A stretch of 64,000 nt of DNA from Deltaproteobacteria bacterium GWC2_65_14 (GTDB taxonomy: Bacteria; Desulfobacterota; Deferrimicrobia; Deferrimicrobiales; Deferrimicrobiaceae): positions 50,019-114,018 of the forward strand of contig MGPV01000017.1 of NCBI GenBank assembly GCA_001797615.1, in the 5' to 3' direction. This document shows positions 8,634 to 57,192 of the stretch, piece after piece (positions within the stretch are counted from its first letter, which is position 1; each line of letters starts with the position of its first letter). The translations under genes were made by a program, and so were the position numbers. The notes beneath the pieces were generated by a model. The model had not been told where the DNA came from. It made no database searches and saw nothing but the letters and a program-made list of their open reading frames with translations.

Positions 8634-8729
8634 TGGCGGAAGCGTGAGGGAATCGAACCCCCCGGAGACATTGCTGCCTCCCGGCCGGATTTGAAGTCCG
8701 GGAGGGCCACCAGCGCCCTATCCGCTTCC
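8634..8729 (-). tRNA. selC: tRNA-Sec (selenocysteine tRNA, anticodon UCA).
   Basis: The reverse complement reads GGAAGCGG...CCGGACTTCAAATCCGG...GGTTCGATTCCC...CGCTTCCGCCA. The anticodon arm CUGGACUUCAAAUCCAG-like is identical in loop sequence to E. coli selC, with anticodon TCA. It has a long variable arm and a ~95-nt length with encoded CCA. Confidence 0.85.
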
Positions 8730-9744: not shown

Positions 9745-9819
9745 GGGCGCTTAACTCAGCGGTAGAGTGCCACCTTCACACGGTGGAAGTCACAGGTTCA
9801 AATCCTGTAGCGCCCACCA
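9745..9819 (+). tRNA. tRNA-Val (anticodon CAC).
   Basis: GGGCGCTTAACTCAGCGGTAGAGTGCCACCTTCACACGGTGGAAGTCACAGGTTCAAATCCTGTAGCGCCCACCA folds as a cloverleaf with a 7-bp acceptor stem, T-loop TTCAAAT, anticodon loop TTCACAC and encoded CCA. Confidence 0.9.
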
Positions 9820-50390: not shown

Positions 50391-53090
50391 CTACCCGTAC
50401 TCCTTCGCCAGATCCTCGAACCGGGTGTAGCGGGAGATGAAGGCGAGCTCCACGACCCCCATCGGGCCGTTGCGCTGCTTGCCGATGATCACCTCGGCCT
50501 TCCCCTTCTTTTCCTCCGGGGTGTCCTCCTTCTCGTACATCTCCTCCCGGTAGATGAAGAGGATCAGGTCTGAATCCTGTTCAATTGCCCCCGAATTGTG
50601 TGAAACGACTCCGTCCGCCAGCCAGGAGGAAGGACCCGGGACGGTCAGGTCGAATACCTCCTCGGCTCCGTCCGGCCGAAGATCCGTCACACGGTCCCAG
50701 AACAGGTCGCTGGAGGCGGACCGCAGCAGCGGCTCGTCGTCCAGGATATTCGCATATTCCGCCAGCAGGGTCCGCGACGGGGCGAAATCGAGCTGCCCGC
50801 CCCCTCCGTACGCGGTACCCCGGAGCGCCGCCATATCGCGATGGGAGATCCCCCGAGCCGCCATGGCCGCCTTCACCTGGAGGAACGCCTCTTTCGGCAA
50901 CGTGTCGACATTGGGGTTGGATTCCACGAAGGCCAGTTCATTCCACAGTTGGTCCGCGGGCGCCATGCGCGGTCCGAACGCCCCCACCGTCTCGAGGAAC
51001 CGCTTCTGCTGGTCGGCGTCGGACACATCCACGGTGTACACAGGTCGGTAGTTTCCCTTCCGCACGACCCGGATCCTTGCCACGATCCCAAGCCGCACCA
51101 GCAGCGCCGCCACGTCGAGGGCGAGCCCTTCGCTCGAGGTGCTGAAGTAGACCCGCGACGATCCCTTCGCCCCCCTCGGTCGACAGTAAATGCTCCCGTC
51201 CGTCGCCCACAAATGTCTCAACAACGACGAGACCTGCTCATTATCGAACCGAAAGATCTCGGCGGGGAGCCGCTTTTCGTGAGATCGATGCCCGAAGATC
51301 CCCAATTTTCGCAGCCAGCGATTCACCCCCGCAGGATGCCACCGGTTTCCGTTCCCCCTGATGAAAAGCTGGTGCCAGTTTCCGCGCCCGCGGTAGCGGG
51401 TCACCTTCACGCCGAACTCTCTTCGCGCCGCCCCTTCGACGGCGAGGCTGTTCTCTTCCGAAGCGGTTGTGTACCGAAGAGACTGCCCGATAAGATAACT
51501 GCCGTCCCCAACGAGATGCCCCAACAGGGCGATCCGGTCCTCCGGCCAACGGACCGTGTCCCTCGGCTCCGGAACGTGTCGCGCGATGGCTATCCTGTCC
51601 CCCGGTGCGAGATCCGCCACACGCACCCAGCCGTCGGAACCGAACAACCGATGGTCGGCCGTGGCGCGTATCGTGCGGCCGCTGGCCACGGTGACCCGGG
51701 TGACCGGCCTCTCCCCGACCGACCAGACGCAATCGCTTTTCGCGGGGACGATCCGTCCTTCCGGCGACATGGCCCAGACCTCCACCGGTTTCCCGACCAA
51801 GGACCGTATCGGCGCACGGCTTCCGTCGGTGGCGAGAACAAGCGTGTCTCCCGTCACGCACTCCCTCAGGTCCGCCAACTGGGGCCGCTTGTTCTCCCGG
51901 GACTCCACCCCCCGGTTCAGCTGGGAGATCGCGATGACCGGGACGTTGATCTCCTTCGCGAGCGCCTTGAGGGAGCGGGAGATCTCGGAGATCTCCTGCA
52001 CCCGGTTCTCGTAGCCGCCGCGCGAAGAGCCTCCCCGCATCAGCTGCAGGTAGTCGACGATGACCAGCCCGATGCCCCTGTCCTTCTTCAGGCGGCGCGC
52101 CTTCGCCCGCAGCTCGAGGGCGGTGAGCGCCCCGGAGTCGTCGGTGTAGACCGGCGCCTCGGAGAGCCTCCCCACGGAGGCGACGATCCGGTTGATCTCG
52201 TCCTGGGTCAGGTACCCCGTGCGCAGCCGCTGGAACTCGACCCGCGCCTCGGAGCAGATCATCCGCAGCGCGAGCTGCTGGCGGCTCATCTCGAGGGAGA
52301 AGATCGCCACCGGGACCTTGCTCCGGAGGGCGGCGTTCAGCGCGACGTTCAGGCAGAGGGCGGTCTTCCCCATCCCGGGGCGGGCGGCGACGACGATCAT
52401 GTCGGAATTCTGGAAGCCGGCGGTCTTCGCGTCGAGGTCCCGGAAGCCGGAGGGGATCCCGGTGATCATCTCCTTCTTCTCGTAGAGCTTCTCGATCTCC
52501 TTCATCGCCTCCTTGCTCATCTCGGACATCGAGTAGTAGGAGGGCTTGATCTTCTCTTCCGCGATCTCGAAGATCGCCTGCTCGGTCCGGTCGAGGAACT
52601 CGTCGAGCTCGGTCACCCCCTCGTAGGCGGAGGCGGCGATCTGCTGGGAGACCGCGATCGTCTTCCGCAGGATCGCCTTTTCCTTGACCAGCCGCGCGTA
52701 GTCCGCCGCGTTCGAGATGGTGGGCACGTTGTGGATCAGCTCGGAGAGGTAGGCGACTCCCCCCGCCTCCTTTTCCCCGCCGCGCCCCTTCAGCACATCG
52801 GCGATCGTGAGCGGGTCGATCGCCCGCCCGCGCTCGTAGAGCTCCAGCATCGCGGAAAACAGGTTCCGGTGGGCTCCCTGGTAGAAATCCTCCGGCCGGA
52901 GGATCTCCACCACGCCGTTCATCCGGTCGTTGTCCAGCAGGACGGCGGCGAGAACGGCCTGTTCCGCCTCCAGGCTGTGCGGGGGGACTTTCAGCAGGGG
53001 GACGTCCACCGCCGGATACGGGGGTACATGCGTTCCGCTCATCGGCACCTCCCTGCACTCCCCGCGGTCCGGTCGATGGACCGCGGCCAA
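50391..53090 (-). CDS. dnaB: Replicative DNA helicase DnaB containing an in-frame intein (899-aa precursor).
   Basis: The N-terminal DnaB domain and RecA-like helicase core (Walker A ARPGMGKTA; ISQLNRGVESRENKRPQLADLRE) are followed, after the intein, by the C-extein SGAIEQDSDLILFIYREEMY. The probable real start is MSGTHVPP. My hand count of homopolymer runs near the start disagrees with the ORF track; I defer to the track. Confidence 0.9.
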   Translation of the reverse strand: MAAVHRPDRGECREVPMSGTHVPPYPAVDVPLLKVPPHSLEAEQAVLAAVLLDNDRMNGVVEILRPEDFYQGAHRNLFSAMLELYERGRAIDPLTIADVLKGRGGEKEAGGVAYLSELIHNVPTISNAADYARLVKEKAILRKTIAVSQQIAASAYEGVTELDEFLDRTEQAIFEIAEEKIKPSYYSMSEMSKEAMKEIEKLYEKKEMITGIPSGFRDLDAKTAGFQNSDMIVVAARPGMGKTALCLNVALNAALRSKVPVAIFSLEMSRQQLALRMICSEARVEFQRLRTGYLTQDEINRIVASVGRLSEAPVYTDDSGALTALELRAKARRLKKDRGIGLVIVDYLQLMRGGSSRGGYENRVQEISEISRSLKALAKEINVPVIAISQLNRGVESRENKRPQLADLRECVTGDTLVLATDGSRAPIRSLVGKPVEVWAMSPEGRIVPAKSDCVWSVGERPVTRVTVASGRTIRATADHRLFGSDGWVRVADLAPGDRIAIARHVPEPRDTVRWPEDRIALLGHLVGDGSYLIGQSLRYTTASEENSLAVEGAARREFGVKVTRYRGRGNWHQLFIRGNGNRWHPAGVNRWLRKLGIFGHRSHEKRLPAEIFRFDNEQVSSLLRHLWATDGSIYCRPRGAKGSSRVYFSTSSEGLALDVAALLVRLGIVARIRVVRKGNYRPVYTVDVSDADQQKRFLETVGAFGPRMAPADQLWNELAFVESNPNVDTLPKEAFLQVKAAMAARGISHRDMAALRGTAYGGGGQLDFAPSRTLLAEYANILDDEPLLRSASSDLFWDRVTDLRPDGAEEVFDLTVPGPSSWLADGVVSHNSGAIEQDSDLILFIYREEMYEKEDTPEEKKGKAEVIIGKQRNGPMGVVELAFISRYTRFEDLAKEYG
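50595..51860 (-). mobile_element. DnaB intein (422 aa) with a LAGLIDADG homing-endonuclease domain.
   Basis: Begins CVTGDTLVLATDGS (block A). It has two LAGLIDADG-like motifs (LLGHLVGDGSY and LWATDGSIY) and ends ...VVSHN followed by the +1 Ser. The insertion is at the classic DnaB-b site (LRE/SGAIEQD). I checked that the Cys1 codon (TGC) sits at 51858-51860. Confidence 0.85.
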
Positions 53091-57118: not shown

Positions 57119-57192
57119 TGGCTGGGAGGGAAGGGGTCGAACCTTCATCGGGGGCTCCAAAGGCCCCTGTCCTGCCGTTAGACGACCTCCCA
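57119..57192 (-). tRNA. tRNA-Gln (anticodon UUG).
   Basis: The reverse complement TGGGAGGTCGTCTAACGGCAGGACAGGGGCCTTTGGAGCCCCCGATGAAGGTTCGACCCCTTCCCTCCCAGCCA has a U1:A72 pair and discriminator G73 as in bacterial tRNA-Gln. The anticodon stem GGGGC/GCCCC carries the loop CUUUGGA, the T-loop is TTCGACC, and CCA is encoded. It lies between spoVG and prs. Confidence 0.8.

Follow-up and report, generated by a model that had tools for sequence, protein, structure and literature searches.

What interrupts the replicative helicase gene dnaB of Deltaproteobacteria bacterium GWC2_65_14, at which of the DnaB insertion sites does the interruption lie, and is the element still mobile? We addressed these questions in a stretch of 64,000 nucleotides (nt) of contig MGPV01000017.1 (positions 50,019 to 114,018; hereafter the window, whose own numbering is used throughout), in which dnaB and every feature within it lie on the minus strand. 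The gene carries an in-frame insert of 422 amino acids (aa) at 50595..51860, corresponding to residues 411-832 of the open reading frame (ORF). We conclude, with a probability of roughly 90%, that this insert is a splicing-competent, endonuclease-bearing class 1 intein located in H4, a DnaB motif that binds DNA.

Evidence for a class 1 intein in DnaB

The insert starts with CVTGDTLV and ends with VVSHN, after which the host protein resumes with SGAIEQDSD, giving the junctions LADLRE^CVTGD...VVSHN^SGAIEQD (a caret marks a junction or insertion point here and below). A preliminary description of the window had read the insert, its coordinates, and its position between LADLRE and SGAIEQDSD in just this way, and the translation agrees with it exactly. 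The same description had recognized splicing blocks A, B, F, and G, which are borne out by conserved residues and by the TIGR01445, TIGR01443, and PF14890 profiles. Block A (CVTGDTLVLATDG; 51822..51860; TIGR01445) opens with Cys1, the first nucleophile. Block B (SGRTIRATADHRLFG; 51639..51683), which aligns to the block B sequence KATANHRF of the Ssp DnaB intein, holds the TxxH motif Thr67-Ala-Asp-His70. Blocks F and G (GAEEVFDLTVPGPSSWLADGVVSHN; 50595..50669) align to EEVFDLTVPG...IVH of Ssp DnaB and contain Asp404, His421, and Asn422. The next codon, TCG at 50592..50594, encodes Ser+1, the first residue of the C-extein and the second nucleophile.

Residue conservation was assessed in an alignment of the intein with 41 homologues (42 sequences). 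Here Cys1, His70, Asp404, His421, and Asn422 are invariant, and Thr67 and Ser+1 are conserved in at least 90% of sequences. Scores also exceed the profile cut-offs for Intein_splicing (PF14890; 63.3 bits versus 35.8), intein_Nterm (TIGR01445; 46.3 versus 24.5), and intein_Cterm (TIGR01443; 25.6 versus 15.6). Alignment to intein profiles, PF14890 among them, had been put forward earlier as a check on the element, and it finds Cys1, the His-Asn pair, and Ser+1 all in place. The features that define class 1 are therefore present together: Cys1, the TxxH of block B, the Asp of block F, and a terminal His-Asn followed by Ser+1, along with the profile scores. Taking the insert out restores a contiguous DnaB reading ...LADLRESGAIEQDSD..., with DLRESGAIEQD at the spliced junction, and intein-free orthologues exist. 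Given the scores for PF14890, PF14528, and DnaB_C, the identification of the insert as an intein is far beyond chance. Because dnaB is essential and the catalytic residues are intact, the intein is predicted to splice autocatalytically. A search of the 64-kb window for a second copy or a fragment of the intein returned nothing better than an E value of 0.6.

Endonuclease domain and predicted fold

Between its splicing blocks, the intein contains a LAGLIDADG homing endonuclease domain (intein residues ~101-295; 50976..51560), recognized by a PF14528 match and by fold. The LAGLIDADG_3 profile PF14528 scores 74.7 bits against a cut-off of 22.5 and covers the second half of the domain only (residues 209-293). 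The two LAGLIDADG motifs of the preliminary description can be made out, and each has its acidic residue. Motif 1, LLGHLVGDGSY (intein 112-122; 51495..51527), includes the putative catalytic Asp119, and motif 2, LRHLWATDGSIY (intein 214-225; 51186..51221), includes the putative catalytic Asp221. In the alignment with the 41 homologues, Gly118, Asp119, and Gly120 of motif 1 and Thr220 and Gly222 of motif 2 are invariant, and Asp221 is at least 90% conserved. The endonuclease core is followed by a helical domain (intein 296-382; 50715..50975), seen as helices in the structural model and conserved in the family, which is partly or wholly missing from mini-intein relatives. This domain probably serves as an accessory region for DNA binding.

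An AlphaFold2 model built on the homologue alignment reached a mean pLDDT (predicted local distance difference test) of 93.4 and a pTM (predicted template modeling [TM] score) of 0.92. The two motifs are carried by model helices 107-119 and 207-221, with Asp119 and Asp221 at their C-terminal ends. The best match of the model in the PDB was the TliVMA intein (7qss; E=5e-23, TM 0.72), and further matches were the endonuclease-containing inteins PI-PfuI, PI-TkoII, and PI-SceI. For the endonuclease core, I-DmoI is matched across ~200 columns (TMt 0.61-0.68); the splicing-domain part matches the Ssp and Npu DnaB inteins and the Mtu RecA intein with a root mean square deviation (rmsd) of about 1 Å. 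Sequence, profiles, and model thus show the insert to consist of a HINT splicing domain, a LAGLIDADG endonuclease with two motifs that divides this domain, and a helical extension.

Position of the insertion within motif H4

The preliminary description had placed the intein at the DnaB-b site and had called this the classic DnaB insertion point; neither statement could be upheld. Of the three DnaB sites described in Novikova et al. 2016 (PMC4760082), DnaB-b denotes the P-loop, where ATP is bound, and the other two, a and c, both fall within motif H4 at a distance of two residues from each other. Site b holds class 3 mini-inteins without an endonuclease, exemplified by Mle DnaB and Msm DnaBi1, while Msm DnaBi2 and the homologous Mtu intein, which are of class 1 and have an endonuclease, occupy site a in H4 (Kelley et al. 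2018, PMC6195587). In the window, the P-loop ARPGMGKT (52341..52388) is contiguous and uninterrupted, which makes the label DnaB-b wrong. The insertion falls ~170 residues downstream of the P-loop, between the Glu and the Ser of DLRE^SGAIEQD in motif H4. A second intein at the P-loop was considered and ruled out, as the extein is contiguous and 461 aa long.

As for the classic insertion point, the Ssp and actinobacterial inteins occupy a position two residues away. Crystal constructs of Ssp DnaB keep the native flanks LRESG^...^SIEQD, and all 118 of the actinobacterial H4 inteins with readable junctions lie at DLRESG^C...HN^S[IL]EQD. These actinobacterial junctions come from a homologue search that started from a two-intein DnaB (P0341) and returned only other Actinobacteria, with no named Mtu protein among them; the equation of site a with RESG^S thus rests on Kelley 2018 and on actinobacterial data that include no named Mtu sequence. 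Site a, occupied in Ssp, Npu, and Mtu and by Msm DnaBi2, is the position between the Gly and the Ser of RESG^S[IL]EQD, and the intein described here does not lie there: its junction, RE^SG, is two residues (6 bp) upstream. Every close homologue with readable junctions reads Glu/Asp^Cys...His-Asn^Ser-Gly. Among cluster representatives, the RE^SG and RESG^S classes separate cleanly. Those of the RE^SG class are generally more similar to this intein, with up to 63% identity, and those of the RESG^S class are 29-44% identical, aligned over the full length.

What PMC4760082 says of site c, a location in motif H4 two residues from site a, agrees with the position found here, which also has Ser at +1. 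The site is therefore most likely DnaB-c and not DnaB-b, with the letter assigned to its position by elimination: an insertion two residues downstream of site a would have Glu at +1, which is no nucleophile, and the letter c should accordingly belong to RE^SG. It counts against this assignment that the mapping of c onto RE^SG depends on statements in the text of PMC4760082 and on our own junction data. Full-text literature searches for a letter-to-residue mapping of the DnaB sites gave nothing relevant.

Size of the family and relation to known inteins

DnaB is the commonest bacterial intein host. The element is unremarkable within a family that is already known and very large, numbering thousands of database entries by itself, and the exact protein of the window has already been deposited. 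More than 1,346 proteins in a 90%-clustered database match it, and the DLRE^CVTGD...SHN^SG.IEQD junction recurs in more than 1,300 homologues. Named hosts include Deltaproteobacteria, Betaproteobacteria, Planctomycetota, Actinomycetota, Rubrobacter, Steroidobacteraceae, and Poribacteria. Matching representatives of clusters at 50% identity number 7,420 at E<=1e-3 and 551 at E<=1e-30. Several related dnaB calls (P0197-P0204) go out of frame partway through the intein, some of them without a C-terminal junction; in P0198 and P0200, the frame is lost right after '...RGTSY', at a stretch that reads YGGGG in the window intein. These frame losses are probably sequencing errors at G-rich runs and not pseudogenes of an essential gene.

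The DnaB site-c inteins in the catalogue of Novikova et al. 2016 (PMC4760082) share with this element the host protein, the H4 motif, the two-residue offset, and the class 1 residues. We found nothing substantive that sets it apart from them; it adds a further member, from a Candidatus Deferrimicrobiaceae-like 'Deltaproteobacteria' metagenome-assembled genome (MAG). With the site-a inteins (Mtu DnaBi and Msm DnaBi2; PMC6195587), it has the H4 motif and the class 1 mechanism in common, and it is homologous to full-size site-a relatives along the whole length, endonuclease included (29-44% identity). The site-a elements sit at RESG^S, whereas this one sits 6 bp upstream at RE^SG, and the block G context is SHN^SG here versus VHN^SI in the Ssp and actinobacterial site-a inteins. 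By sequence, the nearest relatives with solved structures are the DnaB inteins of Ssp and Npu (PDB 1mi8, 6frh, and 4o1r), whose splicing domains are homologous to the one described here (E~1e-20, 35-37% identity; rmsd 1.0-1.3 Å over ~96 residues). Unlike the intein in the window, these PDB entries are engineered mini-inteins without an endonuclease. TliVMA (7qss), PI-PfuI (1dq3), PI-TkoII (2cw7), and PI-SceI (1vde) share its architecture, in which a LAGLIDADG core of two-fold pseudo-symmetry, together with accessory DNA-binding elements, divides the HINT domain (TM 0.5-0.72), but their identity to it is 12-20%, and their hosts (VMA ATPase, RNR, and PolB) and accessory domains differ. The class 3 mini-inteins of site b (Mle DnaB and Msm DnaBi1) resemble it only in their host protein and in being inteins; they lie at the P-loop, lack Cys1, use a block F Cys, and have no endonuclease.

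Distribution in the lineage and signs of mobility

We compared the window (WIN) with a set of related loci (L001-L015, of which L002 is a metagenome contig). The closest DnaB exteins, at 77-90% identity (P0121-P0150), belong to intein-free proteins of 459-461 aa. Locus L001 is fully syntenic with the window (90% aa and 92% nt identity), and its ...DLRE^SGAIEQD... is uninterrupted; the empty site reads ...GCGGACTTACGCGAG^AGTGGGGCAATTGAACAGGATTCAGAC.... Among GTDB representatives of the Candidatus Deferrimicrobiaceae-like clade, five are empty (L003-L007) and seven have the intein (L008-L013 and L015). A comparison with intein-free DnaB proteins, together with a look for empty sites in the lineage, had been suggested at the outset, and with L001 and L003-L007 uninterrupted, it supports the intein. 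Its presence differs within pairs that are close in their exteins, namely WIN and L001 (90%), L008 and L003 (91%), and L013 and L007 (98%). One intein-bearing contig, L010 (JBLMWX010000213.1), is labeled Gemmatimonadota, and its dnaB extein shares 94% identity with the one in L009, which belongs to the Deferrimicrobiaceae-like clade as a 'Deltaproteobacteria' MAG; this suggests that the L010 contig was mis-binned or mislabeled.

All nine full-size copies in the lineage (the window, L002, and the seven GTDB representatives) are exactly 422 aa long and align without gaps. Across them, the ratio of nonsynonymous to synonymous substitution rates (dN/dS) in the endonuclease region is 0.09-0.27, as low as in the splicing domain; the extein of WIN versus L001 gives 0.50, a value that has very low divergence at extreme GC3 (G+C content at third codon positions) behind it. 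The GC3 of the intein is 0.79, compared to 0.955 for the extein and 0.87-0.94 for neighboring genes, with a sharp drop at both junctions, and the same offset recurs in each of the nine copies. For hosts beyond the lineage, similarity is higher in the intein than in the extein in 55 cases out of 63 (mean 60% versus 54%). As this is the reverse of the pattern within the clade, it implies horizontal spread.

Relatives with 66-71% extein identity have mini-inteins of 135-210 aa at the same site, from which the endonuclease is deleted. These derive from the full-size family by endonuclease deletions with different boundaries. With its full-size, mini, and empty alleles, the clade shows the classical homing cycle at each of its stages. 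One 185-aa mini-intein at the same site (P0169) appears to be without the block B TxxH, in a region that reads as if frameshifted; an assembly error is likelier here than a splicing-defective intein in an essential gene.

The preliminary description had thought the endonuclease intact and the element possibly still mobile. The first view is supported by the invariant Asp119, the at least 90% conserved Asp221, the low dN/dS, and the confident model, and the second is made plausible by the empty sites, the patchy distribution, and the GC3 offset. From these evolutionary signatures, we consider recent or current mobility of the intein likely, and we lean, somewhat beyond even odds, toward an active endonuclease in this particular copy.

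Alternatives to an active homing element

Several observations weigh against this reading. A structural need for splicing, as opposed to nuclease activity, could account for the purifying selection seen in the endonuclease region; the discussion of PMC10643990 mentions an intein, that of Haloferax volcanii PolB, whose splicing depends on its endonuclease domain. Intein identities within the lineage (67-83%) roughly follow the extein relationships, and vertical descent with occasional recombinational loss explains much of the patchiness without current homing. The Ser+1 codon is TCN or AGY in a ratio of 7/2 in occupied versus 2/4 in empty alleles, a difference that was not significant as a test of co-conversion (p=0.14). 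In eight of nine occupied alleles, but in only one of six empty ones, AGG or AGA encodes the Arg that stands two residues ahead of the junction, a nominally significant difference (Fisher p=0.011; flank codons taken from window positions 51861..51869 and from L001-L015), and AGG is rare in the window extein (3 of 35 Arg codons). This bias could stem from shared ancestry or from a co-conversion tract left by homing, the two being confounded by phylogeny.

The most durable alternative builds on such points. It holds that splicing is intact and that the endonuclease is no longer an active nuclease: the intein would be inherited vertically, empty sites would stem from recombination with alleles that lack the intein, and the fold of the endonuclease would be kept as a stabilizer of the splicing structure. 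The broadly congruent identity matrices of intein and extein within the lineage fit this explanation, as does the precedent of endonuclease-dependent splicing in PMC10643990, and the mini-inteins prove that endonuclease loss happens in the clade. Those same mini-inteins, at 135-210 aa, show however that the splicing domain in this family can do without an endonuclease. Both catalytic Asp residues and the neighboring Gly residues are invariant or nearly so, dN/dS is as low in the endonuclease as in the splicing domain, the distinct intein GC3 in nine genomes argues against long residence, and the intein is more conserved than DnaB across phyla. We regard an inactive endonuclease as a possibility to be kept in mind, though clearly the less probable one.

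For mycobacterial DnaB inteins, a function as a conditional-splicing switch has been proposed, by which DnaB is kept inactive under redox or metal stress. It is improbable that the intein described here has been co-opted in this way, whether alongside its selfish role or in place of it. The idea draws on the position of the intein in the DNA-binding motif H4 of an essential helicase and on such regulation having been shown for Msm DnaBi1 (PMC6195587, PMC7360933). The documented sensors, however, are class 3 P-loop inteins of a different family and site; the only other Cys residues here, Cys44 and Cys229, are not conserved in the family consensus; and the closest relatives have no intein, which is therefore dispensable. 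That the insert is not an intein at all, being instead a native lineage-specific DnaB domain insertion or an assembly chimera, can be set aside as extremely improbable, given that all of the defining splicing residues and profiles are present, that an independent GenBank record holds an identical protein and a second MAG a fragment with 100% identity, that more than 1,300 homologues have the same junction, and that the insertion breaks a DLRESG motif that is contiguous in relatives.

The dnaB gene and its surroundings

The mechanically called ORF (50391..53090) runs to 899 aa from a TTG start, the protein length given in the preliminary description. This overstates the precursor, because an ATG 16 codons downstream, at ORF residue 17 (53042), is preceded by a GGGAGG ribosome-binding site and yields an 883-aa product identical to GenBank OGP35143.1. 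The ATG is probably the real start and the TTG at 53090 unused, which would leave a coding sequence of 50391..53042 that comprises the 883-aa precursor and the stop codon. The GenBank title of OGP35143.1 is 'replicative DNA helicase [Deltaproteobacteria bacterium GWC2_65_14]', with no intein in the label, and the 100% identical fragment from the second MAG is deposited as a 'hypothetical protein'.

The N-extein (51861..53042) comprises the DnaB N-terminal domain (PF00772) and most of the RecA-like ATPase domain (PF03796, stretch 211-411) and ends with ...RPQLADLRE. The C-extein (50391..50594) runs from SGAIEQDSD to AKEYG, 67 aa plus the stop codon. Pfam DnaB and DnaB_C both score above cut-off (DnaB_C, E=1e-101), and an NCBIfam profile search of the precursor gave 550 bits for TIGR00665 DnaB. 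The NCBIfam replicative DNA helicase model NF005852 (PRK07773), whose positions 398-826 align to the intein, matched in one stretch (protein 34-896, model 22-885 of 886) with 962.9 bits against a cut-off of 780.

The gene order prs-rplY-pth-rpsF-ssb-rpsR-rplI-dnaB is the canonical chromosomal position, with a convergent gene for an NtrC-type regulator downstream, and dnaB here is the organism's single chromosomal replicative helicase gene. In one 621-aa relative (P0163), ribosomal protein L9 domains are fused to DnaB, probably a read-through or gene-calling fusion of adjacent rplI and dnaB. Elsewhere in the window, we noted a selenocysteine tRNA at 8638..8729 on the minus strand (Rfam RF01852, 74 bits), because of which the organism probably makes selenoproteins, and ordinary tRNAs at 9745..9816 (plus strand) and 57122..57192 (minus strand).

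Proposed mechanism and significance

The intein is a selfish element inserted in frame in motif H4 of the DnaB ATPase domain, and we propose that it is excised after translation. Splicing would have to work, because dnaB is essential and is interrupted in H4. Following established class 1 intein chemistry, Cys1 would undergo an N-S acyl shift, Ser+1 would attack the resulting thioester by trans-esterification to give a branched intermediate, Asn422 would cyclize with the help of His421 to release the intein, and an O-N shift would join the exteins into an active 461-aa DnaB. The freed intein may then act as a site-specific LAGLIDADG endonuclease with Asp119 and Asp221 as its catalytic residues. 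Its targets would be dnaB alleles without an intein, cut around ...GACCTGAGGGAG^TCGGGGGCAATTGAACAGGAT..., and the element would be copied into the cut allele when the break is repaired from an intein-bearing one, completing its homing.

A broader and more tentative proposal, which we would not favor over its negation, joins the site and mobility data. The insertion point of the site-c family, which is homologous to the site-a family over its full length, may have slipped by 6 bp; the two endonuclease lineages would then have overlapping targets among the same codons of H4 and exclude one another. An active site-c element may at present be cycling through invasion, endonuclease loss, and precise loss in the Deferrimicrobiaceae-like population sampled.

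The finding is of little importance beyond correct annotation. Annotation should give the site as the position in H4 that lies two residues upstream of the classic point (site c), not as DnaB-b. Both in gene calling and in comparative pipelines, the 883-aa product should be handled as two entities, a 461-aa helicase and a 422-aa mobile element. The intein could supply a new splicing domain and endonuclease for protein engineering, and the full-size, mini, and empty alleles of the clade, a clean natural series, could be put to use in work on the homing cycle. If a site-c element is indeed actively cycling, the lineage would offer a tractable natural system in which to measure homing dynamics in uncultured bacteria.

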